Positions 1-41,280 of a stretch of 41,370 nucleotides of DNA are shown one piece after another. The DNA is from a virus. Below the pieces are notes generated by a model. That model had not been told where the DNA came from, ran no database searches, and was given only the letters and a program-made list of their open reading frames with translations. Location of the stretch: the IMG/VR virus record IMGVR_UViG_3300045988_094016, positions 1 to 41,370 of that record; one strand, written 5' to 3'. Made by a program: the position numbers and the translations under genes. The number at the start of each line of letters is the position of its first letter. Positions within the stretch are counted from its first letter, which is position 1.

Positions 1-55
1 AATAAGCTAGAAAAATTTTATCTAAATCAGAGTGCAAACTTTGACGAGCTAAAAA
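1..55. repeat. Terminal direct repeat: bases 1-55 are identical to 41316-41370 (circular-contig overlap or terminal redundancy)
   Basis: Exact 55-nt identity between the first and last bases of the window. Gene order continues across the junction. Confidence 0.9.
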
Positions 56-244
56 AATCATAATTGAGTTTATAAACACGTTGAAAATAAGCGATAATAA
101 AATAATCGAAATGCTAAAACTCGATAGAGAATTAGATAATCGCTATCTAATCAACGAGATTTAATTTAAACAAAGCGCAATAAATTAAACTTAATTGCGC
201 TTGATTTAGATTAATGTTCTTTAAGCAAACTTTAAGCATATTTA

Positions 245-253
245 TGTTATAAT
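245..253 (+). promoter_or_regulatory. Early promoter, extended -10 TGTTATAAT
   Basis: TGnTATAAT read directly from the sequence. It is the first of four tandem promoters upstream of the CDS at 542. Confidence 0.5.
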
Positions 254-296
254 ATAAGATTTTCGATATTATCACTAATTGATAATCTCTATCAAC

Positions 297-325
297 TTGA
301 CAAAATCGAAAAATTATGCTATAAT
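297..325 (+). promoter_or_regulatory. Consensus sigma70 promoter TTGACA-N17-TATAAT
   Basis: TTGACA at 297-302, an exact 17-nt spacer, and TATAAT at 320-325. Confidence 0.7.
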
Positions 326-342
326 ATCAAGTTATGCAAAGC

Positions 343-389
343 GCACAATCTGATTAAATTTAATTCAGTTTAATTTAATCAGATTGTGC
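343..389. promoter_or_regulatory. Operator-like perfect inverted repeat overlapping a promoter
   Basis: Left arm 343-360 (gcacaatctgattaaatt) is the exact reverse complement of right arm 372-389. The 11-bp spacer is taattcagttt. The right arm overlaps the TGCTATAAT -10 element at 387-395. Confidence 0.5.
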
Positions 390-395
390 TATAAT
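387..395 (+). promoter_or_regulatory. Early promoter, extended -10 TGCTATAAT
   Basis: TGnTATAAT immediately 3' of the inverted repeat. Confidence 0.5.
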
Positions 396-463
396 AACAT
401 CATCAAAGTTTAGTTTTGATGAAAATATATCAAGTTTAATTCAGTTTAATTTAAGCAAACTTA

Positions 464-472
464 TGATATAAT
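464..472 (+). promoter_or_regulatory. Early promoter, extended -10 TGATATAAT, inside the conserved element aattcagtttaatttaagcaaa
   Basis: A near-identical block of about 35 bp recurs at 40906-40940. Both are followed by the similar leaders aaagaaagagagataaaacaATG and aaagaaagagagataataaaATG. Confidence 0.55.
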
Positions 473-541
473 CTCATCAAAGCTAAAGAGATAAGCGCGC
501 AAAATCTTTGCTAAATAAAATAAAGAAAGAGAGATAAAACA

Positions 542-1015
542 ATGTTAAGTAAATCAGAGCTAATCGAAAAATTAAACTCAATAGTTGAGAGTGCTAAACT
601 CTCTAAATCAGCAAAATCAGAGTTTGACGAACTTTTAAAAGAGCTAACAACTCGCAAAGCTAGAGAGATTAAAAACCCAGATTATTATAGCGATGAAAAT
701 CAATGCGTAATGCGTTACTGCAAATATCATCAGCGTTATGAACGCGATGACGAAATGATAGCAAAAAAATCTTATTGTCGCGCTGCGAGTTTCATCTCTA
801 ATCAAAGACGAAACGAAATCAAGAGATTAGAAAATGAGCTATTAAGCTTAATTCAAACAAACGCAGACGCGAGCGAAATATCAAAGCTCGCAGACGTTAT
901 AAAAGAAAAGAAGCAAAATATGCACGCGCCCGAAACTTATGATTATGAGCGTGATAATCAATATTACGCTGAAAATTGCAAACAAAGAAAATCGAGCGCA
1001 GACGATAAAGAATAA
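542..1015 (+). CDS. Early hypothetical protein, Cys-containing, 157 aa
   Basis: First ORF after the four tandem promoters. It is followed by an intrinsic terminator. I recognise no domain. Confidence 0.6.
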   Translation: MLSKSELIEKLNSIVESAKLSKSAKSEFDELLKELTTRKAREIKNPDYYSDENQCVMRYCKYHQRYERDDEMIAKKSYCRAASFISNQRRNEIKRLENELLSLIQTNADASEISKLADVIKEKKQNMHAPETYDYERDNQYYAENCKQRKSSADDKE

Positions 1016-1026
1016 ATCAAAATAGA

Positions 1027-1056
1027 GCGCGTTATCTCTTTGATAGCGCGCTTTTA
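1027..1056 (+). terminator. Rho-independent terminator
   Basis: Stem gcgcgttatc/gatagcgcgc with one G.U pair, loop tcttt, then TTTT. Confidence 0.6.
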
Positions 1057-1099
1057 AAACTTCAAACGATAAAATTATACTCTAAAACTTCAAACGCTT

Positions 1100-1860
1100 T
1101 AAATCAAACGCTAGATAGCTTTATTTCGATTGTTAATAAACGTTAAATATTTTTAAATCAATGTTAAACGATAATGATTATAATAATCAAACTTAATTTA
1201 ATCATTTCTATACAATGAAATTTAATAATCATTATCAATTTACACTTATCTAATCATCTAACTATAATTTGCATCTAATGATAATTTGCATCTAGCGTTA
1301 AAATCATCTAGCGTTAATTTAAATGCAATTCAATAGTGAGCTAATACTATTATATTGCTATAGCGTTAAAATGCTTTAAAACGCGCCAAATGCTTTTTAA
1401 ACTATCATTGCAATTTAATTGCGCTTAATTCTTTAATCTAAATCTAGCGCGCTAGAAAAATTATTGATAAGCGTTATCATTATAAGCGTCTAAGCTAAAT
1501 GTAAGCAAACTAAGTTATAAATCGAAAAAATCGAGCTGATTTTTAGCTATGATTTACGCTGAACTATTGATATATCGAGTTTAAATCAAATAAATCAATT
1601 AAATCTAAAAAATCATCTAGTAAAAAAAAAAAGAAATTATAGCGAATTTAGAAAAAGTTGATTTTTTGATTTTTCTTGATTTATTGATTTATTTTCTGAA
1701 ACTAATCTTAAAGTTGATTTATTGATTTGTAACGATTTGTAACACGATTATCAACTAGCTTTATAATTGATAGCATTTCATTGACTTTTAAGCTTTTATC
1801 ATTATTATCACTTTATGATAATCTATAATGGTTATCAACTATCAAAATTTTTCGACGCTA
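1100..1860. other. ORF-free AT-rich iteron region, candidate origin of replication
   Basis: No ORF of 60 aa or more is present across 1.2 kb. Repeats include aatttgcatcta x2, atctagcgttaa x2, ttgatttattgattt x2 and gatttgtaac x2. There is an A11 tract at 1622-1632. The palindrome tgataagcgttatca and many TTATC(A/C)/TGATAA motifs are present. Confidence 0.35.
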
Positions 1861-2174
1861 TAATCTGAGAATCATTATCAATATCACAGCATATCTCAAC
1901 ATATCCCGCTCCACGCTTATCCAGATTTCCCATAATGCCAACTATTTTTACATAATATAATAGCCTCTAGGGAGTTCTCGCGCGCCGAACAAATCTCAGC
2001 CACTCCAGAAAATCTCACGCAAATCTAGCAACTAGCGCGGTCCTAGAACTAGCAGCTACTATCTAGTTTAGGTCGAAACTATCCTTAGTTAGCTATTTCA
2101 ATAAATGCCACACTGCCATATTAAGAATTAAATAAAGAAAATAAAGAAAATTAATCTAATTTTAAGAATAAATT

Positions 2175-11057: not shown

Positions 11058-12020
11058 ATGGAATTTGATGACGGTGAGTTGGTCGATATTGACCTAACCC
11101 AGAACGGCGATGTAGCCGCACCGAAAAACGGTAAGATAGCGTTGATTGACGCTGATACCGTAGTTTTTGGGAGCGTAACTAAGCACCAAGAGGTTATAGA
11201 ACTACTACCCAGGGCTATGTATTCAGACGAGGAGTGGGCAACTATTAGCTCGATGAAAACATACGACCCTGAAGCTGGGACCATAGCCATATGCAATATG
11301 GATAATGCGTACCAATCAACTTTAGATAAGCTTCAAGGCATACTTGACGCTACAGGTTGCGTCGATTGGGAACTTCATTTCACTATTGGTCGTGGCAGCT
11401 TTAGATACACCAAGATTGACCCTATGTATAAAGCTAATAGGCTTGAGATGAAAAGCCCTGATGGGTTAAATGAGTTGAAGGTCAGAATGACTGAAGCGTT
11501 CCCGACTAAGGCATTTATCCACTATGATTTCGAGGCTGATGACGCGGTCATAGCCAAGAAAAAAGCACAACCAGATAAATATTTACTCTGCGCTGTGGAT
11601 AAAGATGTCTTATATACACTGCCGGGTAAGCACTTTAACTACTACAGCAGGGCAGAAACAGTAACAAAAGCAGGTAATCACCTCGATGAAATTAAAATGA
11701 AGTTTTTCGATGTAGAGCCTGAGCAGGCTATGAAGCACCACTTTAAGCAGTGCTTAACCGGGGACACTGGCGACAACGTTATCGGTTTAGCTAAAGTAGG
11801 CCCTAAAACAGCAGATAAAATCTTAGCTGGGGCTAGTTCGGCTGCTGAGTGTTGGGAGAGGGTGGTCAATGAATACGAAGCTAGAGGGCGTGATGTGTTT
11901 GACGCGGTTAAAAATATGAGGTTGGTCAGTATGCACCAGATTAGCTATGACCCTGAAAACGATAGCTATAGTTTAAATCTATGGCGTCCAGAAATTAACA
12001 AAGGAGAAAACGATGAGTAA
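11058..12020 (+). CDS. 5'-3' exonuclease / flap endonuclease (T7 gp6 / Pol I N-terminal-like)
   Basis: PIN-like ALIDADTVVF. The H3TH motif is TGDTGDNVIGLAKVGPKTA. The RBS is AAGGAG. Confidence 0.8.
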   Translation: MEFDDGELVDIDLTQNGDVAAPKNGKIALIDADTVVFGSVTKHQEVIELLPRAMYSDEEWATISSMKTYDPEAGTIAICNMDNAYQSTLDKLQGILDATGCVDWELHFTIGRGSFRYTKIDPMYKANRLEMKSPDGLNELKVRMTEAFPTKAFIHYDFEADDAVIAKKKAQPDKYLLCAVDKDVLYTLPGKHFNYYSRAETVTKAGNHLDEIKMKFFDVEPEQAMKHHFKQCLTGDTGDNVIGLAKVGPKTADKILAGASSAAECWERVVNEYEARGRDVFDAVKNMRLVSMHQISYDPENDSYSLNLWRPEINKGENDE

Positions 12021-12444
12021 TGTAAATGAAACTTTAAAACAACGTGGTGCCGTTTATGGAGATTATAAAGGTGGTTCGGAGTTTAGAGCTAATGTTATGA
12101 AACTAATTAAGGATAGGCACCAAGCAGTTAATGGTAAATTGTTGGACGCTTTGCATATGGTCTATATTTACGATATAGTTAATAAGCTATCTAGGTTAGC
12201 TACAACTCCAGACCACATAGATACTTGGCACGATATTGCTGGGTATGCTATGTTAGTAGAGGAAGCCCTTAAAAAGCAAGAAACTAAGAAGGAGTGCAAT
12301 ACCAAAGAAGCTGATGACGAAGCCGCCGTTATAGAGTTTATTAATTTAATGGAGGCTTTAACAGGTAAGGATAGCGAGATAACTAAAATGTCTAAAGAAG
12401 CTTACGATGACTATAAAAAGGCGAAAGAAAATGGGACGCGTTAA
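12013..12444 (+). CDS. Hypothetical protein, 143 aa; first gene of the nucleotide-metabolism block
   Basis: Strong RBS. Overlaps the neighbouring genes by a few bases. No confident domain call. Confidence 0.5.
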   Translation: MSNVNETLKQRGAVYGDYKGGSEFRANVMKLIKDRHQAVNGKLLDALHMVYIYDIVNKLSRLATTPDHIDTWHDIAGYAMLVEEALKKQETKKECNTKEADDEAAVIEFINLMEALTGKDSEITKMSKEAYDDYKKAKENGTR

Positions 12445-13321
12445 AACTAAATTCGGTAAGAAGCCTGCAACGGCTTATGTAAATCAAATAACTAACTTGA
12501 CGGTCGATTTAGTATCGGCCCCAAGCTGGAAGGAGCTTTGTAGTTATTTACCAGAATTTACTACGGCTACTTGGAGGGACGAAGCAGAAGCGGGTAAGAT
12601 AGATAACAGAGAGGAGATAGTTAAAGCTATATTTAGAGGCGAGATGTTACCCACAGCCTTAGAAACTATAAGGGTTACATTTCTTATTGACGGCTTAGAC
12701 TTAATCGACGTCACCCATTTGATAAGGCATAGAACCCTTAGCTTTAGCGCACAATGCACAGCTGACAGGGATATGCGTAAAGATAATTGTATGGTTAAAC
12801 CTAGCATTTTGGTAAATGACGAGTTTTTTGATAGGTATAAGAAAATAGTTGATGACGCCAAGAAATTATACGCTGATATGGTAGATAGTAAAGAGGTATC
12901 TATTTTTGACGCCAGAACTATTTTACCGAGAAGTTTAAGTAATTTCTATTATGTTAGCGGCAGCTTAAAGGATATAATCGCGTTTATAAAAACCCGCAAG
13001 GACGAGGCGATACAGCCTGAAAGCGATAATATCATAGCTATTCTTATGTGGTTGAAATTGGTTAAGCAATATCCAGCATTGCAGGAGTGCATAGATATGG
13101 ATATAGGTGGGCGAGATGAATTCTTTTGTAAAACAGCCTTGAGTGGGCATAATTCCCTAGCTTATTTACCTAAGCCAGAAAACGAAGTTCCGGGATTAAA
13201 GCCAGAGGACTGCATTTACCAAAAACGCAGGGCTGATTTTCCGGGAGGTAATTATTACGAAAACCGTAAAAGAAATATTCTACAAGTGTTAAAAGGGATA
13301 AAAGATGGCAACAATATTTGA
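12431..13321 (+). CDS. thyX: Flavin-dependent thymidylate synthase ThyX-like, with N- and C-terminal extensions
   Basis: The ThyX signature RHRtlSfSaQ is present, but the conserved Ser of RHR-X7-S is Cys here. The ATG at 12431 has an RBS. The track starts at 12407. Confidence 0.75.
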   Translation: MGRVKTKFGKKPATAYVNQITNLTVDLVSAPSWKELCSYLPEFTTATWRDEAEAGKIDNREEIVKAIFRGEMLPTALETIRVTFLIDGLDLIDVTHLIRHRTLSFSAQCTADRDMRKDNCMVKPSILVNDEFFDRYKKIVDDAKKLYADMVDSKEVSIFDARTILPRSLSNFYYVSGSLKDIIAFIKTRKDEAIQPESDNIIAILMWLKLVKQYPALQECIDMDIGGRDEFFCKTALSGHNSLAYLPKPENEVPGLKPEDCIYQKRRADFPGGNYYENRKRNILQVLKGIKDGNNI

Positions 13322-13727
13322 TTTAGGTGTTTATATAGCAGGTGGTTGGTTTTCTCCAGAACAGGAGAAAGCCTTAGATGAACTAGAGGGCTACGTTAAA
13401 GAGCATTTTGAACTATATTTTAGCCCTAGAGAGCATAATAACGCTAAATGTCAAGATTTAGAGGATATATTCCAAAGAAATATCCAAGCCTTAGATGAAG
13501 CGGAGATTATCATAGCCTCAACTATAGGTAAAGATATGGGCACTCTTTGGGAGTGCGGCTACGCTTATGCTAGAGAGCTTCAAGTTATTTATTACGCTCC
13601 TGGTATAGATAAAGTTAATCTAATGTTGGCTAAGAGCGGCAGAGTGGCTAGAAACCTAAAAGAGCTGGAGCAGATTTTGATAGATGTGGCTAATGTAGGC
13701 TATGTAGCAGATAAGGATATAGAATGA
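13305..13727 (+). CDS. Nucleoside 2-deoxyribosyltransferase / DNPH1(Rcl)-like
   Basis: Contains YIAGGWFSPEQ and the catalytic-Glu motif DMGTLWECGYA of this family. Confidence 0.7.
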   Translation: MATIFDLGVYIAGGWFSPEQEKALDELEGYVKEHFELYFSPREHNNAKCQDLEDIFQRNIQALDEAEIIIASTIGKDMGTLWECGYAYARELQVIYYAPGIDKVNLMLAKSGRVARNLKELEQILIDVANVGYVADKDIE

Positions 13728-14266
13728 TTGAGTTGGACGAACTATCACAAGCTGAAATTGAGGGAATATCAATCCCTCGCAAAGTTTATAACCTGAAGTT
13801 TATTCAGCGTTACTCGATAACGCCTAGAATAATTAACGAAACAGTGGCAGAGCATAGTTTCTTTGTGGCTACCTATGTTATGGAGTTGTATAAGTATTAT
13901 AAGTTTGATTTAAATAAAGCTGTGCAAATGGCTATAATCCACGACTTCGCCGAGAGCTATATAGGTGATGTAACCTTGAGCACTAAAACAATGTGCCCAG
14001 ACTTAGTTAAGGCTGTAGCAGATGCGGAATCTGATGTTATGTTTCAGAACTTCCCTAGTTTTATTTACGAGCTTTACAGGGAATACGAACGGCGCGTTAG
14101 TGTGGAGAGTTTGATAGTCAAGTTGGCAGATACGATGCAGGTCAAACAATACGCCAGTAATGAAATATCACTAGGTAATAATTCGCTTACGATGTCTAAT
14201 ATCCTTAGCCGTGCGGTCGATGATATAGATTTATTTGAGCGCAAACTCGCAGTTTATAAACGCTAA
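13724..14266 (+). CDS. HD-domain 5'-deoxynucleotidase (YfbR-like)
   Basis: Motifs VAEHSF...IIHDFAESYIGD match the YfbR-type HD motifs. Confidence 0.7.
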   Translation: MIELDELSQAEIEGISIPRKVYNLKFIQRYSITPRIINETVAEHSFFVATYVMELYKYYKFDLNKAVQMAIIHDFAESYIGDVTLSTKTMCPDLVKAVADAESDVMFQNFPSFIYELYREYERRVSVESLIVKLADTMQVKQYASNEISLGNNSLTMSNILSRAVDDIDLFERKLAVYKR

Positions 14267-14405
14267 AATTAGCGCATTGCGTGAGCGTAGAGCGATTTAA
14301 ATTTTTAGCTTGATTAATTCATCGAGTTAAGATTAAAATCGCTTTAGCGCGCAATGCTATTAAGAAAACTTTAATATTAAATTAAGTTAAAGTTAAGTAA
14401 GATTA

Positions 14406-14414
14406 TGTTATAAT
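14406..14414 (+). promoter_or_regulatory. Promoter, extended -10 TGTTATAAT
   Basis: Upstream of the HTH gene and downstream of an imperfect hairpin of about 90 nt at 14274-14357. Confidence 0.5.
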
Positions 14415-14464
14415 AAACGTAATTAAAGATAAAAATTTAATTAAAAACAATTCAAAGGAGCGCA

Positions 14465-14713
14465 ATGGATAAAGTTATAACTATCCAAAGTTACATCGAA
14501 AACCTTGAGAACCAGGGTATGACAGGTGTAGAAATCTCTAAACATTTGAGGGTATCAGCCTCTATGATTTCTACTTATAAATCAAATAGGTATAATATTA
14601 GCCTTAAACAAGCTAAGTTAATCTATAAACTTTATGGAGTAACTATACACCCGTATAGTGAAGCTAGTTTAAAAGCCGAACTAAATCTTGACAGGGAGAA
14701 CGAAAATGCCTAA
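14465..14713 (+). CDS. Small HTH DNA-binding regulator (XRE-like), 82 aa
   Basis: Helix-turn-helix GVEISKHLRVSASMISTYKS. The RBS is AAGGAG. Confidence 0.6.
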   Translation: MDKVITIQSYIENLENQGMTGVEISKHLRVSASMISTYKSNRYNISLKQAKLIYKLYGVTIHPYSEASLKAELNLDRENENA

Positions 14714-15269
14714 TTTAAACGAATTGCAAATTAAAATAGAACAGTGGTCAGAGGAAAGAGGTATCTTAGCTAATTCTAAAGCAGTTACCCAATGCCTTAA
14801 ACTTATGAGCGAAATGGGAGAACTAGCTGATAACCTAGCTAAGGGTAAAGACTGCCGAGATGATATTGGTGATTGCTTCGTGGTGCTAGTTAATATAGCT
14901 AGATTGGTGGGTTCTAATATAGCCGAGTGCGCAGAGATAGCCTATAACGATATTAAAGACCGAAAAGGGTTTCTGAACGAAGCTGGGACTTTTATTAAAT
15001 CAACTGACGCAAACTATGAGCGGCTATACCAAGAGTTTTTACAGCGCAATGAAGTGCCTAAAATGAAAAAAGAACTTAATGAAATGGAGCAGGCTACACT
15101 AGATGAAATAGTTAATGCTCCAAAAGATTTAAAGGTGGATAATTTCACGGCTTCTTTACCTACTTTATCTAAGAACCCGACAGACGCAGAGATTATATCG
15201 GCTTGGGAAGCTAAGGGGTATAGAGCACATAAGCGCAAAGATGGCTGGTTCTTCAGTAGGATTCATTAA
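14706..15269 (+). CDS. MazG-like nucleoside triphosphate pyrophosphohydrolase with a ~90-aa C-terminal extension
   Basis: The MazG core is EMGELADNLAKGK...DDIGDCFVVLVNIA. The ATG at 14706 has the RBS GGGAGA. The track ORF starts at TTG 14688. Confidence 0.7.
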   Translation: MPNLNELQIKIEQWSEERGILANSKAVTQCLKLMSEMGELADNLAKGKDCRDDIGDCFVVLVNIARLVGSNIAECAEIAYNDIKDRKGFLNEAGTFIKSTDANYERLYQEFLQRNEVPKMKKELNEMEQATLDEIVNAPKDLKVDNFTASLPTLSKNPTDAEIISAWEAKGYRAHKRKDGWFFSRIH

Positions 15270-15291: not shown

Positions 15292-15549
15292 ATGAAATTT
15301 ACAAATAAAACACCTGAAGTAAGGTATTATTTTATTTTAGATGGGACTAAGACTGCGGGAACTATTTACTATGAAAATTTCGGCACTAGAAAATTTCAAT
15401 GGACTCTAATGTTTGGCAGAAAAATAGAGCCTGCTAATATCTTAGATTTATGCCATAAAGCTAGTAGTGAGAATTGGCCAATATCTATGATGGACGCTAA
15501 AGTTAGCACCGAGCTAGAGTATATAGCTGTAATGCCAAAGGAGTTATGA
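15292..15549 (+). CDS. Small hypothetical protein, 85 aa; first gene of the small-gene array
   Basis: The ATG at 15292 has the RBS AAGGAG. The track start is 15241. Confidence 0.45.
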   Translation: MKFTNKTPEVRYYFILDGTKTAGTIYYENFGTRKFQWTLMFGRKIEPANILDLCHKASSENWPISMMDAKVSTELEYIAVMPKEL

Positions 15550-15821
15550 TGGTTACTGTTGATTATGTTGGAGATGTTCAATACGAGCACGGCATTAGTC
15601 AGGCGTTCGATAATACTAAAGTTATATTTAAAGAGTTCAAGAGCGGTATTTATCAAGGTAGTATTATAGCTCTGCTTAATAACGAAGCCCAGAAGAGTAA
15701 GTTAGCGTTTGTTACTTTAAATATTCTATTAAATATTATAGCCCAGCACAATATACAAAGACAAGAGTTAATGCACCATCTATCTCTTTGGTTTGATAAC
15801 GTCAGTTTTGAGGAGGCTTGA
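15546..15821 (+). CDS. Small hypothetical protein, paralog family A copy 1
   Basis: The C-terminus LSLWFDNVSFEEA matches KMWFDEVSYKKA in the ORF at 16056. The start overlaps the upstream stop. Confidence 0.5.
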   Translation: MMVTVDYVGDVQYEHGISQAFDNTKVIFKEFKSGIYQGSIIALLNNEAQKSKLAFVTLNILLNIIAQHNIQRQELMHHLSLWFDNVSFEEA

Positions 15822-15822
15822 A

Positions 15823-16059
15823 ATGGATAACAAACTAAGACATAGATACGTGGTAGAAACTAGACCAGTATCTATTTTTATACACGTATTTGTAGATGAT
15901 AAACCTGAAGGCAGAATAACGGTCCCTTTTACTGATAGGAAAGCTGTTTATTCTTTATGCGAGGTCGCTGATTGTGGTAAGTTGGAGCTTTATGATTTTT
16001 TAGAGTGTTTAAGATTATATGTTGATGTTACATATACACCTTATAAGGATTTAAAATGA
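15823..16059 (+). CDS. Small hypothetical protein, 78 aa
   Basis: The ATG at 15823 has the RBS GAGGAGG. The track start is 15793. Confidence 0.45.
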   Translation: MDNKLRHRYVVETRPVSIFIHVFVDDKPEGRITVPFTDRKAVYSLCEVADCGKLELYDFLECLRLYVDVTYTPYKDLK

Positions 16060-16328
16060 GTTACGCTATTTATACCCAGTTTAATGCTGGCATAGGTAAT
16101 ACTAAATCGCATACTTTGGTTATAATAGACGAATACGATGAAAATGGTAATTATACTGGTAAAATACTAGCTAAAGCCTATGATGATATAGACCACGGTA
16201 AATCTATGTGGTATGTAACACAAGTATTGGCTTCAGCATTAAATGCCTACGATGATTTAATATCTAGGTTAAAAATGTGGTTCGATGAAGTTTCTTATAA
16301 AAAGGCGAATAGCAATGAGCAAAACTAA
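16056..16328 (+). CDS. Small hypothetical protein, paralog family A copy 2
   Basis: Shares G-Y-G, KS..(F/Y)VT and the WFD.VS C-terminal motif with the ORF at 15546. Confidence 0.5.
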   Translation: MSYAIYTQFNAGIGNTKSHTLVIIDEYDENGNYTGKILAKAYDDIDHGKSMWYVTQVLASALNAYDDLISRLKMWFDEVSYKKANSNEQN

Positions 16329-16593
16329 GTATGGCGTGGAGCTAATAAACTCAATGTTTAGCTCCAAAACAACTGCTATAATAAGAGCGTCTGTTGATAG
16401 TATAGAAATCGGAGCGATTATAATCAAGCTAGATTATAACGAGATGAATAATAAAGCGTTATATAATGCGCTTAAATCGCTAGCGTTATGCGCTGAAATA
16501 ACAGATTTAAGCTTAGTAACGTTGAGCGAGATTATAGCTACTCATTTCGGACACGAGAAAATAAAGCTTTGTATCGGGCAGGAAAACAAATGA
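16315..16593 (+). CDS. Small hypothetical protein, paralog family B copy 1
   Basis: LKSLALCAEITDLSLVTLSEIIATHF matches LSALCELAGMYDISLATIALFLGKHF in the ORF at 16841. Confidence 0.5.
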   Translation: MSKTKYGVELINSMFSSKTTAIIRASVDSIEIGAIIIKLDYNEMNNKALYNALKSLALCAEITDLSLVTLSEIIATHFGHEKIKLCIGQENK

Positions 16594-16850
16594 GCACCTA
16601 TAAATACGAAGCAGTTAAGGATACAAAAGAGTGCTGGTATATAACTATCTCCGAACTTAATGGCGGTGTTAATGAACCGTGGGGATATATAAAGCTAGGT
16701 TTAGTTTTATCGGAGGATTGGCTTAATTTGGTATTAGAGTTAATTAATACTAGGTCAAGGCTAAAGCCTAGCCAAGTGCTCGAATACATAAGGAAAATCT
16801 CACCTAATGCCGGTATAAAACGCGGGTATATCGAGGGACTATGGAAATAG
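16590..16850 (+). CDS. Small hypothetical protein, paralog family C copy 1
   Basis: YKYEAV, PWGYIKLG and LKPSQVLEYIRKIS match YQYELV, QWGYIRIG and VKPTEVLEFMRQMT in the ORF at 17114. The start overlaps the upstream stop as ATGA. Confidence 0.5.
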   Translation: MSTYKYEAVKDTKECWYITISELNGGVNEPWGYIKLGLVLSEDWLNLVLELINTRSRLKPSQVLEYIRKISPNAGIKRGYIEGLWK

Positions 16851-17113
16851 TTTATAAATGTAGCTATGATTATAACCGTAATAATAACATTACGCTTATA
16901 AGAATAGGTCGCTTTGTAAAAGATAAATTTAAAGGCGAGATTATAGTTAAAACTAAGGGTGAAATAGAGCAAACTTACGGGCTTAAAATACTGTCCGCAT
17001 TATGCGAATTAGCAGGTATGTATGACATATCACTAGCCACAATAGCTCTATTTCTTGGCAAACATTTCCTAGATTTAGGAGATAAAGTTGATTATATCAT
17101 TAAGGATAAATAA
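16841..17113 (+). CDS. Small hypothetical protein, paralog family B copy 2
   Basis: See the ORF at 16315. The RBS is GAGGGA. Confidence 0.5.
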   Translation: MEIVYKCSYDYNRNNNITLIRIGRFVKDKFKGEIIVKTKGEIEQTYGLKILSALCELAGMYDISLATIALFLGKHFLDLGDKVDYIIKDK

Positions 17114-17404
17114 ATGAAAAATAATTACCAATACGAATTAGTTACAGGTCAAGGGTTATTTCAAAACGATAACTATGTTAATATAACTAAGGATTATCCT
17201 GGTATGGGCGTTAAGCAATGGGGTTATATACGCATTGGAGATTTACCTGTAGAGGACGAAAAATTCGAGGACGCTATGCGCGTTTTATTTTGCGTGTTTA
17301 ATCATTACAGCCTAGTTAAACCTACAGAAGTGCTAGAGTTTATGAGGCAGATGACAAGAGCCATAGAAATAAATAGAGGAGGAATTGACGATGCTAATGA
17401 TTGA
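17114..17404 (+). CDS. Small hypothetical protein, paralog family C copy 2
   Basis: See the ORF at 16590. The RBS is AAGGA. Confidence 0.5.
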   Translation: MKNNYQYELVTGQGLFQNDNYVNITKDYPGMGVKQWGYIRIGDLPVEDEKFEDAMRVLFCVFNHYSLVKPTEVLEFMRQMTRAIEINRGGIDDAND

Positions 17405-20394: not shown

Positions 20395-22740
20395 CTATAA
20401 ATCATCTAGGATATCTATAGTTCTAGTATTTTCCCTTAAACTATTTCTAGTTTCTATCCTTAAAGTCCTATCATCTTTAACCTTAGCTATAATGCTTTCC
20501 TTACTTCGTTGTAGGTTCTTTAGTGTTTTCTTTTGTTCGGTTGTTAGTTCTACTCCGTTATATTTATTTATTTTCGAGTTTATATTACTTAATTGATTTT
20601 CATACCCTCTTAATCTATTTTCAACCTGGGTTAATTTGCGTTGTAGTTTTGGTGTTTCATTTCTAGCTACTTGTAGTTGCCCTCGTAATTGATTAATCTC
20701 GCTAGTGTTTCTTATGACCATACCAGAGTCTAGGTTATTTAATTTAACTACAGCTTTTTCTAGTGTATTATTAAACTCCTCCAATACTTGAGACGGCATT
20801 TTATAATCTGTAACTATCTTTGATGAAGTTACAGCAGGAGTATCAGAGCTTTTTAGGTATTTAATTATCCTATCCTGCATAGCTACGTTGTTACCGAATT
20901 CTCCCCATCTAATAACTCGTCTTTGCGCTTCACTAGCTATAAATCCAAGCCAACCCATAATACTACGCCAATTCTCAGAACCTTTCTGAGGCACAAACAT
21001 TGTATCATTACCAAATTTTTTAGCATAATTTTCTAGTAATTCAGACGTGGCTCGTGCTTGCTCGGTATTAAGCCCAGCTTCTTGTATAGTTTCTTTTAGT
21101 TTCTTATAATCTATAACTCCGTGCTCATTAGTTGCCGATTTTACGGCTTGGGATAGTTCTTTATTCTGCATTGCGATTTTATAATCGTTATTAGCTTGCT
21201 TAACTAACCCATAAACATCATCGTCTAAATTATCAACTACGTCATCAAGATTGGATTTAATCTGGTGTATTAATTTCTTTTCGTAAGGAGTGGCTGTATC
21301 ATTTAGTTTATTTAAAGTTTCCCTGAATGTTAGCACTTCGTCCAAATTACTGTAATTTTTATCAGCTAATCTCTTTTCAAACCCTAGAAGCTGTTTTTCT
21401 ACATTACTAAGAAGCTGCACATCTGTGGTTTGTATATCCACTCCTTTGAAAATATTGGCAGTATCTACCTGAATATTTTTATCTTTAATAGTTTCTTTCA
21501 TACGACTAAAATTATCCTTAGCTACTTGCTCCATAGCTTCTACATTTTTCTTATCTGCTACTTTATAAACATCTTGTGCTCGGTGTTTAGCCTTTAAAAG
21601 CCCTTTGTTAGCCATATCGTCGCTTTGTTGCATAGCTCTACCTAACACACCCTGCCCAGCTTCTTCGGTCATCATAGATGCCCTATAAGCTTGTTGCTCG
21701 TAAGGTATTGAAGTCATAGCACTACGTGCCTGCTGTTCAGTATATCCCTTACGTAAGAAAAATTGTAACACTTTAGGGTCTATATCAGGGTTACCGTGTA
21801 GTGTAAGCCAATCTCCAATTTTAGAGGCTGCTACTCCCATAACAGCGCCTATTGCAGCATCTTTAGCTACATCTCCTGTAGTTAATATATCTTTTTTCTT
21901 AGTTTCATCTGTTTGTTTGGCATTTTCTCCTGCTCTATCAGTTACACCTCTTAATATATTACTAAACCCTTCAACTGCAGCAGCTGCCGCCTTAGATTTC
22001 ATAACTGGGATTAACGCATCTACAGCATTTAAAGCCGTTTTAGTATTCACTTCAAAATATTTATTATGACCTACAACTCCTAAGCTTTTATCCACTTTAT
22101 CTAGTCGTTTCATAACATTTTCTAGGTCTTTTCTATAAAAATCACTATCTGTAAGACCTACAGAGTTAGCGAAATTCTCGAATATTATAGCTAACGGGTA
22201 ACCTACCTTAGCATTAAATAAATCTAAGGCAGTTTGCACTTGACCAGCTAGTGCGTCCCCCGAAACTACATCTTTAACGGCTTCTTCGGCTGCTTTTAAT
22301 ACTTTCTTGGAGTGTTTAGCTATAAAGTTTAATGCTCCCTCTTCCTCTTTACTTTCCGGCTCGCTGTTCTTTTTACGGGCATAATACGCGTCCCAAGTTT
22401 CAGGATTAGCTTTTCCTGAACTATCAACATACCCACCTGGCGGAGGTGGTGCTTCAGTTTCTCCATTTAGATTAACTTCAGCAGATTTAGTGGTGTTAGG
22501 TGTCTGCTCTACTTTAGTATCATTAGCTATTAAATCATCTAGCCAACTTAACTGGGTATCATCATCGTCCTCTTTAGGAGCTGTAACTTCTACAGCAGGT
22601 AGAGTTACTTCATCAGTCCCTACTTTATGCTCTATTTTTATATTTTTATCGGCTGATTTTTCTGCTGGTTCACTGTTAGCTTTTCCTGCTGGTTTATCAT
22701 TAGCTATCAATTCATCTAGCCAATCTAAATTATCTGCCAT
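20395..22740 (-). CDS. Large alpha-helical virion protein with N-terminal tandem WLD(E/D)LIAND repeats (internal/ejection or tail protein)
   Basis: 781 aa. Two N-terminal ~35-aa repeats, an acidic linker and a long predicted coiled-coil. It is the last gene of the late operon. Confidence 0.45.
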   Translation of the reverse strand: MADNLDWLDELIANDKPAGKANSEPAEKSADKNIKIEHKVGTDEVTLPAVEVTAPKEDDDDTQLSWLDDLIANDTKVEQTPNTTKSAEVNLNGETEAPPPPGGYVDSSGKANPETWDAYYARKKNSEPESKEEEGALNFIAKHSKKVLKAAEEAVKDVVSGDALAGQVQTALDLFNAKVGYPLAIIFENFANSVGLTDSDFYRKDLENVMKRLDKVDKSLGVVGHNKYFEVNTKTALNAVDALIPVMKSKAAAAAVEGFSNILRGVTDRAGENAKQTDETKKKDILTTGDVAKDAAIGAVMGVAASKIGDWLTLHGNPDIDPKVLQFFLRKGYTEQQARSAMTSIPYEQQAYRASMMTEEAGQGVLGRAMQQSDDMANKGLLKAKHRAQDVYKVADKKNVEAMEQVAKDNFSRMKETIKDKNIQVDTANIFKGVDIQTTDVQLLSNVEKQLLGFEKRLADKNYSNLDEVLTFRETLNKLNDTATPYEKKLIHQIKSNLDDVVDNLDDDVYGLVKQANNDYKIAMQNKELSQAVKSATNEHGVIDYKKLKETIQEAGLNTEQARATSELLENYAKKFGNDTMFVPQKGSENWRSIMGWLGFIASEAQRRVIRWGEFGNNVAMQDRIIKYLKSSDTPAVTSSKIVTDYKMPSQVLEEFNNTLEKAVVKLNNLDSGMVIRNTSEINQLRGQLQVARNETPKLQRKLTQVENRLRGYENQLSNINSKINKYNGVELTTEQKKTLKNLQRSKESIIAKVKDDRTLRIETRNSLRENTRTIDILDDL

Positions 22741-22749: not shown

Positions 22750-24540
22750 TTATTCTTGTGGTCTATTGTAGCCGTCTGGAGCGGCGTCGTTACTCATACC
22801 TATGGCTGACATTATAGAACCCATATCGACTGCTCCAACGTCAGCACCGCCTACCGCATCGCGAGGGTCCCTAGTTTCAGCTCCAGCAAGTTTATTGGCT
22901 ACTTGCTCAAATATGTCGGCTATATACTCGCTGTTGCGGGTTTTCATTGCTCGCATACTCAAAGCTACTACTTTACCATAACTAGCTGGGTCGGTATTCA
23001 TCAAGAAATTACCTGCTTGTCCGGATAGTAGTTGGTCAAGCTGTAGTTTTTCTATATCATCGGTTTCGTTATAGTTAGCAGTTGTTATTTCGATATCATA
23101 CTCCAGAAACTCTATTTGGGTTTCTTTTTCTATCCAAGGGATTATATTAGCGTTCCCGTGGTCGTCGTATGTTATATCCTTGATAACTATTTCCTCTTGC
23201 CCTGTTTGTTCGTTAGGCATTAAGAAAGGCTTATTTAGTTCTATAAACCTATCTCCCGATCTTTGGTCGGCTATTCTTATCATCTTATAAGCTCTATAAA
23301 ATAGCTTGGCAAAATCTAAGATATTTATACCTATGCACTCATACATATACTCAATATTAGATGTAATGTAATTTAATGCGCTAGCAGTCATATTTTGCTG
23401 TAGCTTAATTTGACGCCCTGAAGCTGATGAACCCATCATACCTAAGAAGCTATCATTTAGATTTAGGATAGTTTTAATTCTCTGTAGCGACCTATCTATG
23501 ATAGTATATTGAGCTATTACGTCGCCGTTTAGATTATCTATTTTTACGCCGTGAATATCTTTCATCGGGATAATAGCATTAACCCTATTAAATACTTTAG
23601 CAAACTCCTCGACGCTATCGACAGCCGTTTTGTTGATATAAACCTTATTAACATTAGCTAATAGTTGTATCTGAATTAGGGCTTGGTTAATAGCTTTTTG
23701 ACTTTCAAGAACTTCCCTAAATATGCCATAAAACCCTTTTTCATCGCGCTCAAGATATATTGGCATAATAGGGAATTTTCGCAGGTGAGTAACTTCAGTT
23801 TTTTCTAGTAACGTATCTCCGCTCCAAACTAACTCCCATATCTTACCGTTCTCTTTTAAATAGCTAGTTATAACTAAAAAACTATCGTTCATCTTATATT
23901 TATAGGCTTTGCCACTAGCAGGGTTATCTATACCAGTAAATCCTACAGACCTGTTTATCTCCTCACTTTTACCTGGCCAAGTATCATCTATATCTTGGGC
24001 AGATATCCATCTATATTTGTGGATATATCTAGCATCTGAATAATCCTCCTCACGAGATTTAGGGTCTGGGATAACTTCGTCCCAAGGTAGATAACGTAGT
24101 TTAATCTGGACGTCTTTAGTCCCAAATTCGTCTTTCTTGCCTGTATCCTCTACTCTTATCTCAAATGCACAAATACCAGCTAGTAATAGGTCATCTATTA
24201 ACCTGGTTTTCATACGGTTAAACTTAGATATTCTTAGCGTGTATTGGACTATATCCTGACCAACCGAAGCTATGTTTATATCCTCTACTCCTACAGGCTT
24301 AACGTTGATGTTAGATATTGTAGAAGCTAGATAACCGCTGATAACACGCTTATACGATTTTATAATGTTAAACGTTTCAGCAGGCTGTTTCCTATTAACT
24401 AAGGTATTAAGCTGTTTAATAGTATAGTGTTGATTGTGATTAAAAGCTATAATCTCCTTAGCTTCCTCTCTGCACTCGCTATGCCAATTAGTGGCATATT
24501 CAAAATACTCCCTTGCTTTTTCTAATAGTTTCTCACTCAT
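22750..24540 (-). CDS. Putative portal protein (assigned by size and position only)
   Basis: 596 aa with an acidic C-terminus, located in the structural operon. No motif confirms the call. Confidence 0.35.
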   Translation of the reverse strand: MSEKLLEKAREYFEYATNWHSECREEAKEIIAFNHNQHYTIKQLNTLVNRKQPAETFNIIKSYKRVISGYLASTISNINVKPVGVEDINIASVGQDIVQYTLRISKFNRMKTRLIDDLLLAGICAFEIRVEDTGKKDEFGTKDVQIKLRYLPWDEVIPDPKSREEDYSDARYIHKYRWISAQDIDDTWPGKSEEINRSVGFTGIDNPASGKAYKYKMNDSFLVITSYLKENGKIWELVWSGDTLLEKTEVTHLRKFPIMPIYLERDEKGFYGIFREVLESQKAINQALIQIQLLANVNKVYINKTAVDSVEEFAKVFNRVNAIIPMKDIHGVKIDNLNGDVIAQYTIIDRSLQRIKTILNLNDSFLGMMGSSASGRQIKLQQNMTASALNYITSNIEYMYECIGINILDFAKLFYRAYKMIRIADQRSGDRFIELNKPFLMPNEQTGQEEIVIKDITYDDHGNANIIPWIEKETQIEFLEYDIEITTANYNETDDIEKLQLDQLLSGQAGNFLMNTDPASYGKVVALSMRAMKTRNSEYIADIFEQVANKLAGAETRDPRDAVGGADVGAVDMGSIMSAIGMSNDAAPDGYNRPQE

Positions 24541-26162
24541 TTAGAACCCTTTTTCTTTCTTTCTTTAGAAATCTTAGCTGCCATAGCTTTCATTTCTGGT
24601 GATAAAGTAGAATACCATTTCTTTTGTTCCTCTGGAGAAGCTTTTTCAATTTCTTTTATCTGCTGCTCCATAAATATTCTGGTTTGTTTTTCGGTTACTT
24701 TATTTATATTACCCTCAAATTTCTCCATACTACCGTAGATATATTTTTGCTTGTAAGGGTCCATAGTTCCTATTTTACCTGCTACTAATGCATCCCAGTT
24801 TTGGATAAATGCTTTAACACCACTTAGAGTAGTATCTATAGATTGAAACTTACCAACCGAGGATTGTAGTATATCTCTGTTCATACCTAATTCGGTTTCG
24901 CTAAATGCTGCTCCTGATTTTAGCTGTATCATATCCGCCGATAGTTGGTCGGCATAACTTTGGATAAATGTAGCTAGGTTGGTAGCTTTCTTTATTTCCT
25001 CGGTTGATACTTCAGGTAAATACCTAGTAATCATTGCAGCCACAGTATCGTCTATTGTGTTATCACCTGTGTAATTCTTGAGTTGTCCTATAAAAACCTC
25101 AAATTTTCTTAGTCTGTTGCCTATAGCTTGAGCTTTTTGGATATCTTGGACTGTTTGCAGTTGTGATGCAGTAGGTGCTATGTGCCTTTTAAACATCTCG
25201 TTATCTTTACCTATAAAATCATAAGCTTCACCGTCCGACATTTCTAAAATTTTTTTATCAGTATCTGCTAATCTTTGTTTGTCTGCTTGCTTTTTATCAA
25301 AATCTGTCATTCTAATTTCAGGGTTCATAGCTTTATACATTTGAGCTTGGGAAGATAGCATATTAGCCTCAGAATTCCTTGCTGCCGCTCCTGCTGTTAT
25401 CATCTTAGCCCGAGCTTCATCATACCCAGTAGCAACTCTCATTTGAGTTTCATCATTTTTAAGCTTGGCTTCAATAACTTTCTGATTAGCAATAAAATCG
25501 TTTCTTTGTTGCTCCATTAGATTTCTATCTGATAAGGACCCTAGTTTATCCATACCAGTAGCTGCATATACTACGGAAGGAGGATAACTAATATAACTTC
25601 CATCTCTAAGCCTGAAATTAATCTCGTCTTGTTGAGGGTCATAACTAACATTGGTAACTGGATTATCTACGGTATTTAAGACGTTATTAATCCATCTAGC
25701 ACCATCTGTATTATATACCCAGCGCTCGTTCATATTCTCCTCGCCTTTTAGTATATCATCTGATTTTCCGTATTTAGCTATTTTGCGCGTATATGTTCCG
25801 TCCTCGTTATGGGTGTAGTTTTTAGGGTCAAACCCTTCAGGTAATTTATCTGGCGAAACTATTTCGTCCTCTATAGTTACGTTTTTGCCTTTATTCTTTT
25901 GGATAGTTTCTACAAAATTTACTAAATCCCTTCTACCTCTGTCTGCTTCAGCTGTAGCTAGAACTTTTTGTATTTCTATATTTTGGAGATATAACTTATT
26001 TTTCATCTCCTGCATTTCAAGCTTATCTTTATCCATAATCTGCTGGGTTCTCTGCCTAGCTAGTTCTCGTTGCTTGGATAACTCCTCATACTCACGCTTT
26101 TCGTCTAGCCCACGATGGTTTTCGTATATACCTTTAGCAAAACCGTCACCTAAATTCCACAT
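24537..26162 (-). CDS. Virion structural protein, 541 aa
   Basis: Its stop overlaps the downstream start as ATGA. Rich in coiled-coil. Confidence 0.4.
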   Translation of the reverse strand: MWNLGDGFAKGIYENHRGLDEKREYEELSKQRELARQRTQQIMDKDKLEMQEMKNKLYLQNIEIQKVLATAEADRGRRDLVNFVETIQKNKGKNVTIEDEIVSPDKLPEGFDPKNYTHNEDGTYTRKIAKYGKSDDILKGEENMNERWVYNTDGARWINNVLNTVDNPVTNVSYDPQQDEINFRLRDGSYISYPPSVVYAATGMDKLGSLSDRNLMEQQRNDFIANQKVIEAKLKNDETQMRVATGYDEARAKMITAGAAARNSEANMLSSQAQMYKAMNPEIRMTDFDKKQADKQRLADTDKKILEMSDGEAYDFIGKDNEMFKRHIAPTASQLQTVQDIQKAQAIGNRLRKFEVFIGQLKNYTGDNTIDDTVAAMITRYLPEVSTEEIKKATNLATFIQSYADQLSADMIQLKSGAAFSETELGMNRDILQSSVGKFQSIDTTLSGVKAFIQNWDALVAGKIGTMDPYKQKYIYGSMEKFEGNINKVTEKQTRIFMEQQIKEIEKASPEEQKKWYSTLSPEMKAMAAKISKERKKKGSK

Positions 26163-39740: not shown

Positions 39741-40191
39741 CACGGAACCTATCCACCAAATTCTGTATAGCTATGTTTATTACCGGAGTATTATCCTTAG
39801 GCCTCAAGTCTTTGTAAGTCGCCTCTATCGCTGTAACCGAACTTATTAAATCCTTAAGCTCCTTAGTATCTCCAACCATCGACATCATATCTAGGGCATA
39901 ATCAACCGCCTTCTCTTTGAACGAACTGATTTTCTCCAAGACTCGGACTACGCTCTCGTCCTGCTCAGGCTCTTGTGATGCTGGAGCTATAGTAACTACA
40001 GCAGGAGCTAGTGGTTGCTGAGGTGCCGGCAAGACCGTAACTCTTGGTCTAGTAAGCCACTCAGGCTCTCCAATCTGCTCCTTTGTAACTTTATACTTAT
40101 CTAATACTACTTCTATCTCCGACCCCGCTTCATACTCTAACTTTATAAGGTTTAAGAGTGCGACTGGGACCGGCTTCGGTGCTTTAGCCAC
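39730..40191 (-). CDS. Putative terminase small subunit
   Basis: 153 aa, immediately upstream of and overlapping terL. GTG start with the RBS AAGGAG. Confidence 0.4.
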   Translation of the reverse strand: MAKAPKPVPVALLNLIKLEYEAGSEIEVVLDKYKVTKEQIGEPEWLTRPRVTVLPAPQQPLAPAVVTIAPASQEPEQDESVVRVLEKISSFKEKAVDYALDMMSMVGDTKELKDLISSVTAIEATYKDLRPKDNTPVINIAIQNLVDRFRDDC

Positions 40192-40213
40192 GGATACTCC
40201 TTATGGTTTTTCT

Positions 40214-40224
40214 GTAAGTATAGC
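40214..40224 (-). promoter_or_regulatory. Late-promoter candidate motif GCTATACTTAC (minus strand), copy 2
   Basis: Its 3' end lies 22 nt upstream of the TerS GTG. Confidence 0.4.
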
Positions 40225-40604
40225 TAAGTTTAACTTAAGCTTTGCTTACGTGAGCTAATGATAACTATAGTTTGCAGGCCGTAGTCGATATTCTATTAAG
40301 TTTAATTAAAATTGTGTTGCAATTAAAGTTAATTGAATAATAATTTCGTGAAAATTTTTTTATTATTTTGGTGGTATAAGTTACACGCTGTTATATTGGA
40401 GTGTGGCGTCGTGAAAATGGGTTATATTTCGTTGAATTAGGTTATTATTCCATTGAATTAGATTTAATTAAATATTAATTCCGAAATGGAGTTGCGGATT
40501 TTGGAGTGTTCTGTCGTCGAAAACTCTCGCATCACTTTGTCGCACCCACTCCAAATTCCCAAAGGCCTCAAAATAATCTCGATATTTTCACGCAATCTCG
40601 CAAA

Positions 40605-40656
40605 GTTTCACGTGAAACGCTAATTGATAACGATTATTATATTTAATTTAATTTAA
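40605..40656. repeat. Direct repeat unit 1: palindrome GTTTCACGTGAAAC plus TTGATAA(C/T)GATTATTATATT
   Basis: Nearly identical to 40696-40748. A third partial copy lies at 40749-40774. Confidence 0.7.
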
Positions 40657-40695
40657 CGTCTAGCTTGAAATGCAGTCTGCCACATCGCATTTTAA

Positions 40696-40748
40696 GTTTC
40701 ACGTGAAACGCTTATTGATAATGATTATTATATTCTATTTAATTTAAG
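40696..40748. repeat. Direct repeat unit 2
   Basis: See unit 1. The palindromes are 91 bp apart. Confidence 0.7.
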
Positions 40749-40931
40749 CATTGATAATGATTATTATAATCTACGTCATTATCATAACAACTGCTATTTG
40801 ATAATGTTGCAATTTAAGCGTTTCTTAAGCAAAATTATGCTATTCGCGTAACATATAATATAAGTAATTTTTAGAGCTAGAAAAATATTTTTACAAACGT
40901 TATTTAATTCAGTTTAATTTAAGCAAATTGA

Positions 40932-40940
40932 TGATATAAT
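40932..40940 (+). promoter_or_regulatory. Early promoter, extended -10 TGATATAAT (duplicate of the element at 437-472)
   Basis: aattcagtttaatttaagcaaattgatgatataat, compared with 437-472. Confidence 0.55.
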
Positions 40941-40974
40941 TCTTTCATAAATCAAAAGAAAGAGAGATAATAAA

Positions 40975-41280
40975 ATGCTAGATGATGATAAATATCTAAA
41001 TGCGTTTTTAAAGTTGAATAAACTAAATAATAAGTTTATTCGAGAATATAATCAAAAGATGATAGATTTTGCTAATCAGTCTTTTATCTTTGTTGAATAT
41101 CAAGAAGCAGAGAAATCATTAAGAGATATTCAAGATAGATTATATTTGATAAATGCGATTATGATTAAAATTGCGCATTATTATCAAGTTGATGAATTAA
41201 ATCTAAATGAAATAAGAGAAAATATAAGCAAAGAATTTAAAAGCGTTTATTTAGATGAAATATTAGAATATATCATCTAA
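40975..41280 (+). CDS. First early hypothetical protein, 101 aa
   Basis: ORF behind the duplicated promoter-leader module. No recognised domain. Confidence 0.55.
   Translation: MLDDDKYLNAFLKLNKLNNKFIREYNQKMIDFANQSFIFVEYQEAEKSLRDIQDRLYLINAIMIKIAHYYQVDELNLNEIRENISKEFKSVYLDEILEYII

Follow-up and report, generated by a model that had tools for sequence, protein, structure and literature searches.

A virus-restricted ThyX-like flavoprotein linked to deoxyribosyltransferase and nucleotidase genes: a candidate thymidine-replacement module in uncultured phages

IMG/VR record IMGVR_UViG_3300045988_094016 is a viral sequence of 41,370 nucleotides, analysed here over its whole length (the window), in which positions 12013-15269 hold six tightly packed open reading frames (ORFs). 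The signature gene of this block encodes a ThyX-like flavoprotein, ThyXL. Judging from the annotation of its ORFs, the window resembles a complete podophage-like genome of about 41 kb, with a rightward replication arm, among whose genes the block is placed, and a leftward structural arm encoding a P22-type portal, major head protein, terminase and tail fibre. Near-identical contigs of 41.2-41.6 kb occur in human oral metagenomes and there are more than 100 distinct relatives of about 40 kb; a megablast search with 11 kb of the window against 50,697 phage records gave no match. A first-pass annotation, made from the sequence alone, had described five consecutive genes here, all of which are present and match their families well above chance (Thy1, Nuc_deoxyrib_tr, HD_3/YfbR-like, HTH_3 and PHROG 1992). 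However, there are six ORFs, the DUF6378 gene having been missed or folded into ThyX:

12013-12444, plus strand: DUF6378 protein, 143 amino acids (Pfam PF19905)
12431-13321, plus strand: ThyX-like (ThyXL) flavoprotein, 296 amino acids as given by gene callers (Pfam Thy1)
13305-13727, plus strand: nucleoside 2-deoxyribosyltransferase (NDT), predicted transferase type, 140 amino acids (PF05014)
13724-14266, plus strand: HD-domain phosphohydrolase of the YfbR/HDDC2 kind, 180 amino acids (HD_3, YfbR-like)
14465-14713, plus strand: small HTH_3 (XRE-type) DNA-binding protein, 82 amino acids (PF01381)
14706-15269, plus strand: MazG-like all-alpha NTP pyrophosphatase, 187 amino acids, with a C-terminal extension of about 80 amino acids (PHROG 1992)

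The first four genes overlap successively by 4-17 nt, the 3' end of DUF6378 overlapping the start of ThyXL by 14 nt, and are therefore probably co-translated; the HTH and MazG-like genes are set apart from them by a gap of 198 nt. Alternative starts exist for ThyXL (ATG at 12407, giving 304 amino acids) and for the MazG-like protein (TTG at 14688, giving 193 amino acids). Scans for promoters and terminators did not rise above chance level. Among the annotated ORFs of the window, which include all of the large ones, there is no deaminase, glycosyltransferase or nucleotide kinase, no thymidylate synthase besides ThyXL, and no PurZ, in agreement with the earlier statement that this is not a Z-genome cluster.

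ThyXL is matched by Pfam Thy1 (PF02511; E=3.8e-16, 59.9 bits against a cut-off of 24.8) but falls below the cut-off of the NCBIfam thyX equivalog TIGR02170 (41.9 against 87.9 bits), so that profile classification of the variant, as the first-pass annotation had proposed, places it inside the domain family and outside the equivalog. Against solved ThyX chains the single sequence gives E=0.026 and the family profile 2e-06. An AlphaFold (AF2) model built with 81 homologues has a predicted local distance difference score (pLDDT) of 91.5 and a predicted template modelling score (pTM) of 0.90, and Foldseek matches to this model are limited to ThyX and PolB structures (probability 1.0, 15-20% identity). 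The ThyX fold of ThyXL is thus predicted with confidence; it is the fold of T. maritima TM0449 (Tm), M. tuberculosis ThyX and the paralogue PolB, a UMP/dUMP methylase.

In alignments ThyXL retains the RHR motif, the equivalents of the contacts T55, E58 and N163 to flavin adenine dinucleotide (FAD), and the equivalents of Tm R147 and R174, which align with the invariant R162 and R189 of the 296-residue protein. Elsewhere the site has diverged. Tm H53 is replaced by Leu and H59 by Thr, and the catalytic trio S88/R90/Y91 is absent family-wide: the S88 position is Cys or Gly, and R90-Y91 give way to an invariant Asp-Arg-Asp (DRD) loop with no aligned counterpart, the SxRY motif becoming [CG][TS][AG]DRD. 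The replacement of Ser by Cys in RHR-X7-S reported in the first-pass annotation is correct for the window protein (RHRTLSFSAQC) but is not conserved, and we reject this Cys as a catalytic novelty because the position is either C or G across the family. Of the terminal extensions claimed for ThyX, the C-terminal one stands, with about 75 residues conserved in the family, whereas the N-terminal one is the separate DUF6378 gene in another reading frame. In ThyX, R174 activates deoxyuridine monophosphate (dUMP) through N3 deprotonation, and S88, R90 and Y91 help to pass the methylene group on from the flavin carbinolamine (PMC8316439). Retention of the former and loss of the latter suggest that the family probably still binds a uracil nucleotide and that its transfer step has been rewired. 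ThyXL differs from canonical ThyX in its DRD loop, its C-terminal extension, its virus-only range and its co-occurrence with canonical ThyX or ThyA.

The NDT matches PF05014 (Nuc_deoxyrib_tr; E=1.6e-14, 54.4 bits against a cut-off of 28.8), contains the GWF and D.GT..E.GYA motifs noted in the first pass, and has as its closest solved structure the N-deoxyribosyltransferase 6EVS. NDTs linked to ThyXL conserve Tyr10, Asn59, Asp77, Glu83 and Asn105, of which Tyr10 and Glu83 are catalytic; Asp77 (in KDMGT) and Asn105 (in VNLM) are kept in at least 90% of them and align with 6EVS. In the NDT of L. leichmannii the 5'-OH is bound by Asp92 and Asn123, to which we take these two residues to correspond. 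The third residue of the triad, Asn59, is the same as in DmtZ and TbPDT (PMC12884076). In DNPH1, Rcl and MilB small uncharged residues replace the 5'-OH-binding Asp and Asn, leaving room for a 5'-phosphate (PMC12884076), and no structure of these three proteins was matched by the NDT sequence. The first-pass label of NDT/DNPH1-like accordingly holds for NDT, and a DNPH1-type hydrolase is rejected, the 5'-OH binders being conserved. Their conservation argues for a transferase-type enzyme acting on nucleosides, which would depend on an upstream nucleotidase.

The HD protein is a probable 5'-deoxynucleotidase. It matches HD_3 (PF13023; 7.2e-21, 75.2 bits) and YfbR-like (PF12917; 1.5e-16, 61 bits), while remaining below the cut-off of the NCBIfam equivalog PRK03826 (37.2 against 122), and its H..HD..D metal ligands can be read as AEH, IHD and LAD in alignment with 2cqz, HDDC2 and YfbR. 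Its PDB matches are 2cqz, 1xx7, HDDC2, yeast YGL101W and YfbR, and it resembles PH0347. Among PHROGs it matches 7076 best, a family labelled dATP triphosphohydrolase; no DatZ chain occurs among the PDB matches at E<=1. The MazG-like protein matches PHROG 1992 (7e-37) and PHROG 715 (1.5e-26) and has the long C-terminal extension described for it earlier, but it falls below the Pfam MazG cut-off (17.5 against 22) and, in the PDB, resembles the MazG-like SSO3215 weakly. DUF6378 scores just 27.6 against a cut-off of 27.1 for PF19905 over a conserved helical core of about 90 residues; it has no PDB sequence or NCBIfam match, and Foldseek E-values from a poor AF2 model (pLDDT 68.6) are all above 2. 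It may resemble the N-terminal domains of DUF5664/MazZ. The embedded HTH regulator is present (PF01381; E=6.7e-05, 23.3 against a cut-off of 23, just above) but occurs only in the two closest lineages, that of the window and that of locus L005, and is probably an unrelated neighbour rather than a component of the pathway.

ThyXL is found in viruses only. Representatives of clusters at 50% identity number 69 at E<=1e-30 and 197 at E<=1e-10, and there are 168 loci in IMG/VR, whereas a scan of 185,579 species genomes contained no relative. The single cultured carrier among the 50,697 phage records is Geobacillus phage GR1 (OK896991), at 43% identity, whose genes also include an NDT, an HD, a glycosyltransferase-like gene and a kinase. 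Most carriers are AT-rich, with 21-42% GC. One homologue (P0017) is entered under an archaeal metagenome-assembled genome (Ignisphaera sp.) on a 6.7-kb contig, which may be a viral contig binned with that genome or an archaeal virus.

Gene linkage was surveyed in 92 fetched loci, scanned with hidden Markov models (HMMs) derived from annotated relatives as well as the window, with lineages defined as the 22 ThyXL clusters at 65% identity. An NDT gene lies in the fetched flank in 21 of the 22 clusters (86 of 92 loci) and within 150 nt of ThyXL in 52 loci. HD genes occur in 19 clusters, and a nucleotidase of some kind, either HD or, in two marine lineages, an NT5C fusion, in all but one of the 22. 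The two HD-less marine clusters, on contigs of up to 236 kb, carry a dUTPase_2 pyrophosphatase gene directly 5' of ThyXL in 33 of 38 loci. In most cases the gene also encodes an NT5C HAD 5'-deoxynucleotidase as a fusion partner; in one cluster several loci have the short pyrophosphatase part alone. The fusion is a non-homologous replacement of the same two activities. A large protein encoded in one of these marine loci (L085) is a ribonucleotide reductase (RNR). DUF6378 lies directly 5' of ThyXL in 11 clusters; where it is absent, the position is usually taken by a P-loop protein of about 145 amino acids with weak similarity to thymidylate kinase (TMK) and deoxynucleoside kinases. In six of the 22 clusters a canonical ThyX (full RHR...SxRY) or ThyA lies within 10 kb, an arrangement that parallels td and gene 42 in T4. 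In the L053 lineage a neighbour of about 460 amino acids has weak Glycos_transf_1 similarity, and a GR1 gene annotated as a glycosyltransferase matches no Pfam model. The fusion genes are as follows:

L056, 8675-9628: dUTPase_2::NT5C fusion, 5' of ThyXL
L085, 8950-9858: dUTPase_2::NT5C fusion, 5' of ThyXL
L092, 7726-9381: GT2::ThyXL fusion, 551 amino acids, in a PolB-type phage, with NDT and a TMK-like kinase 5' of it

A further ThyXL homologue, P0134, has a C-terminal fusion that looks HNH-type endonuclease-like by eye and is uninformative. Locus L005 has a second Thy1 gene (11979-12590, 203 amino acids), an atypical ThyX which retains H53, SxRY, R147 and R174 without the RHR motif and adjoins Tad2-like and RNR genes.

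Comparable gene sets occur in phages with modified thymidine. Homologues of the HD protein are found in GR1, Streptococcus phage GXN1, SP-15 (gp90) and Yuavirus phage MP1412, where MP1412_17 lies directly 3' of an annotated ThyA-type thymidylate synthase/dUMP hydroxymethyltransferase. The other MP1412 neighbours (pyridoxal-phosphate-enzyme, radical-SAM-like and kinase genes) presumably resemble the M6-type thymidine-hypermodification cluster. The DNA of SP-15 carries 5-dihydroxypentyluracil, and Kropinski et al. hypothesised that gp130 is its hydroxymethyluridylate synthase (PMC5977210). This divergent Thy1 protein of 413 amino acids stands side by side with a double NDT (gp127) and a short-chain dehydrogenase/reductase (gp129), and the module HMMs recover both gp127 (NDT, E=4.6e-30) and gp90 (HD, E=1.8e-20). 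In GXN1, NDT, HD and a thymidylate synthase (TS)-like homologue of gp130 are all adjacent, in that order. YerA41, a thymidine-hypermodified phage (PMC9023294, PMC12686479), encodes a gp130 relative (gp081), an NDT (gp086), a MazG-like protein and a HAD deoxyribonucleotidase. These phages thus resemble the window in combining a divergent ThyX-fold protein (about 390-413 amino acids) with NDT, a HD or HAD nucleotidase and MazG, and differ from it in having genomes of 145-222 kb with genes for sugar and other hypermodifications, none of which the window has. SP-15 gp130 and the GXN1 'TS' were rejected as members of the ThyXL family, to which they show no significant similarity. The gp130 family reaches only 71% probability against canonical ThyX by hhalign and appears to be a second ThyX-derived lineage, separate from ThyXL, in which case the same partnership would have arisen at least twice. 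Two observations concern the NDTs of these phages: SP-15 gp127 (L096 1730-2680) consists of two tandem NDT domains, and YerA41_086 (L097 5983-6519), annotated as a mannosyltransferase, is an NDT homologue with 30% identity to the window NDT (E=1e-10).

Removal of thymidine nucleotides is established elsewhere. The dTMP (deoxythymidine monophosphate) phosphatase of dU-DNA phages is an NT5C-like or HD enzyme (PMC12697855), and SPO1 and phiW-14 (dTTPase), PBS1 and DSS3_VP1 (dTMP phosphatases) and the M6-type cluster follow the logic proposed for the window: T nucleotides are removed by a pyrophosphatase and an HD/NT5C phosphatase, and a thymidylate-synthase homologue makes the replacement (PMC12697855, PMC5977210). 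Unlike hypermodified-T systems, the window has no 5-HMUDK or other post-replicative genes, and the known hydroxymethylases are ThyA-family enzymes whereas ThyXL belongs to the ThyX family. To our knowledge, ThyA is the only fold so far proven to build modified pyrimidines in viruses, and we know of no description of an NDT step in pool control by phages with 5-hydroxymethyluracil (hmU), dU or hypermodified T. Z-genome phages (PurZ; DatZ/MazZ or Dut-like/DUF5664; DmtZ/NDT) share with the window module the logic of degrading a canonical dNTP, breaking down dATP to the base by way of a pyrophosphatase and an NDT-family enzyme (PMC12884076). A Z-genome reading of the window is nevertheless rejected, since PurZ is missing and the HD protein is not DatZ-like by PDB comparison; the NDT is also of the nucleoside type, in contrast to DmtZ, and the signature enzyme would act at pyrimidine C5. 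In a screen of metagenomic restriction-resistant DNA, NDT co-occurs with YfbR-like HD and Pol A, and not with PurZ (bioRxiv 10.1101/2025.10.22.683976); this may partly reflect modules like the one described here.

The reading that we favour, while granting it somewhat less than an even chance, is that the block is a nucleotide-level thymidine-replacement module, which turns dUMP into a C5-modified dUMP and takes dTTP through dTMP and thymidine to thymine. We infer the substrates, the products and the non-canonical base of the virion as follows. The flavoenzyme ThyXL would give dUMP a non-methyl substituent at C5, most likely 5-hydroxymethyl. The MazG-like protein, perhaps with DUF6378, would cut dTTP (and dUTP) back to the monophosphate, dTMP would be dephosphorylated to thymidine by the HD enzyme, and NDT would strip thymine off the thymidine and so block its salvage. 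Host kinases, or in some relatives the phage's own TMK-like kinase, would raise the new dNMP to the triphosphate, which the phage Pol A would incorporate into DNA.

Several lines of evidence lead us to this preference. ThyXL combines the predicted ThyX fold and a retained R174 with loss of the S88/R90/Y91 trio and a score outside the equivalog, and it is the only thymidylate-synthase candidate of the window, yet in six of 22 lineages it coexists with a canonical enzyme; NDT and HD accompany it in 21 and 19 of the 22. Where marine lineages exchange HD for NT5C, they stay within the two enzyme families from which dU-DNA phages take their dTMP phosphatases (PMC12697855). The HD homologue beside the MP1412 hydroxymethyltransferase, the parallel sets of the T-hypermodified SP-15 and YerA41, the GT2::ThyXL fusion, and the glycosyltransferase-like neighbours and TMK-like kinases of several lineages point the same way, as does the degradation of a canonical nucleotide by pyrophosphatase and NDT-family enzyme in Z-genome phages (PMC12884076). 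The association of ThyXL, NDT and nucleotidase suggests that in many uncultured phages a modified uracil nucleotide takes the place of thymidine. More tentatively still, ThyXL could be the first ThyX-fold maker of a non-methyl C5-substituted deoxyuridylate, such as 5-hydroxymethyl-dUMP, and with NDT and nucleotidase could mark a large and so far unrecognised class of thymidine-substituted phages in human oral, marine and thermophilic viromes.

Other observations weigh against thymidine replacement. The divergent residues of ThyXL are by themselves compatible with dTMP synthesis, and the annotated ORFs of the window include no glycosyltransferase, dedicated kinase, dCMP/dCTP deaminase or hmU-processing gene. 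A purge of dTTP also sits awkwardly with the canonical ThyX of some relatives, although phage PhiW-14 demonstrates that such a purge and canonical thymidylate synthesis can coexist. Restriction sites are strongly avoided in the window (observed against expected: GATC 1 against 123, CATG 0 against 87, GTAC 5 against 83); GTTAAC, ATCGAT and TTCGAA are absent, ACTAGT, AGCGCT, TCTAGA and GGCC are depleted, and several other ThyXL carriers likewise avoid GATC and CATG. Such avoidance persists only if the sites are cut, and the phage therefore evidently faces type II restriction of its DNA, which argues against a bulky or cytosine-directed modification that blocks restriction. T, U or plain hmU would fit; DNA containing hmU is still cleaved by many enzymes. 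The first-pass proposal of a pool-remodelling module of the kind seen in phages with substituted pyrimidines gains comparative support, from NDT linkage in 21 of 22 lineages, the HD/NT5C exchange, the co-occurring canonical synthases and the SP-15, YerA41 and M6-like sets, whereas a heavily protective modification runs counter to the site avoidance. As a speculation on the host, the avoided set recalls restriction enzymes of the Haemophilus/Neisseria type.

The same avoidance, by implying unprotected DNA, favours a more ordinary account, to which we assign a lesser though substantial probability: ThyXL would be a divergent dTMP synthase serving canonical DNA, the pyrophosphatases and HD would break down excess host dNTPs and dNMPs to deoxynucleosides, NDT would shift deoxyribose to uracil, thymine or adenine, and host kinases with ThyXL would then yield dTMP for an AT-rich genome. 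Such thymidylate supply with deoxyribose recycling fits the retained FAD- and dUMP-binding residues (RHR and the R147, R174, E58 and T55 equivalents), the position of ThyXL as sole synthase candidate in the window, the AT-richness of most carriers (21-42% GC) and an NDT of the nucleoside-transferase type, suited to base swapping. It is harder to square with the canonical ThyX or ThyA found alongside ThyXL in six of 22 lineages, with the loss of the trio whose roles are known (PMC8316439) and a score below the equivalog cut-off, and with the lack of cellular homologues among 185,579 species genomes. The glycosyltransferase fusion and neighbours of some lineages and the parallel gene sets of T-hypermodified phages also speak against it, and a nucleotidase encoded next to a thymidylate synthase would consume what that enzyme uses or makes.

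We consider a T4-like substitution of cytosine improbable. ThyXL would here methylate or hydroxymethylate dCMP, the MazG-like protein or DUF6378 would be a dCTPase, and the canonical ThyX of relatives would play the part of T4 td; the canonical synthase with its paralogue, the all-alpha pyrophosphatase, the small NMP kinase and the glycosyltransferase, taken over various lineages, do mirror td, gp42, gp56, gp1 and the glucosyltransferases of T4, and invariant Asp residues (DRD) stand in place of SxRY. Yet the avoided restriction sites all contain C. Since 5-methylcytosine and 5-hydroxymethylcytosine block most type II enzymes, the selection behind that avoidance would vanish. Moreover, the R174 equivalent, a residue that works by uracil N3 deprotonation, is invariant (PMC8316439), and the characterised phage relatives of HD and NT5C are dTMP/dUMP phosphatases (PMC12697855). 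Slightly less probable again is a linear route like that of MilA/MilB or BcmA/BcmB, in which pyrophosphatase, ThyXL, nucleotidase and NDT would free a C5-modified pyrimidine base or nucleoside that served as metabolite, inhibitor or signal and never entered DNA. A single route of this kind accommodates every enzyme, mildiomycin and bacimethrin biosynthesis offer an established precedent for pairing a thymidylate-synthase homologue with a subsequent NDT-family glycosidase (PMC4081090), and ThyXL and NDT are usually adjacent. But MilB-type enzymes use nucleotides, whereas the window NDT has nucleoside-type 5'-OH binders, and the TMK-like kinases and glycosyltransferases beside ThyXL point to a nucleotide bound for DNA. 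The position of the block among replication genes also speaks against this route.

Should thymidine replacement prove correct, viruses would have recruited a second enzyme fold for modified pyrimidines, and NDT would have a definite part in pyrimidine-pool exclusion, comparable to that of DmtZ in Z-genome phages. The ThyXL and NDT pair would then flag hundreds of uncultured phages with chemically non-standard DNA, with relevance to the evasion of restriction and CRISPR, to sequencing bias in viromes and to new biocatalysts for modified nucleotides. Even with plain dTMP as its product, the ThyXL family would be a catalytically rewired ThyX worth characterising, and the cultured Geobacillus phage GR1 makes the question directly testable.

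Three features of the window lie outside the block. Positions 15546-17404 hold a duplicated block of small genes of about 90-100 amino acids each, none of which matches a known family: 15546-15821 resembles 16056-16328 (E=3e-08), 16569-16850 resembles 17114-17404 (E=5e-09) and 16285-16593 is weakly similar to 16841-17113. The number of these genes varies among the near-identical contigs. In the structural arm, two ORFs on the minus strand (20395-22740, 781 amino acids, and 24537-26162, 541 amino acids) have no PHROG match. GC content falls to 27-32% at both ends of the window (1-2000 and 40001-41000), compared with about 38% overall, and these ends may be genome termini or regulatory regions.

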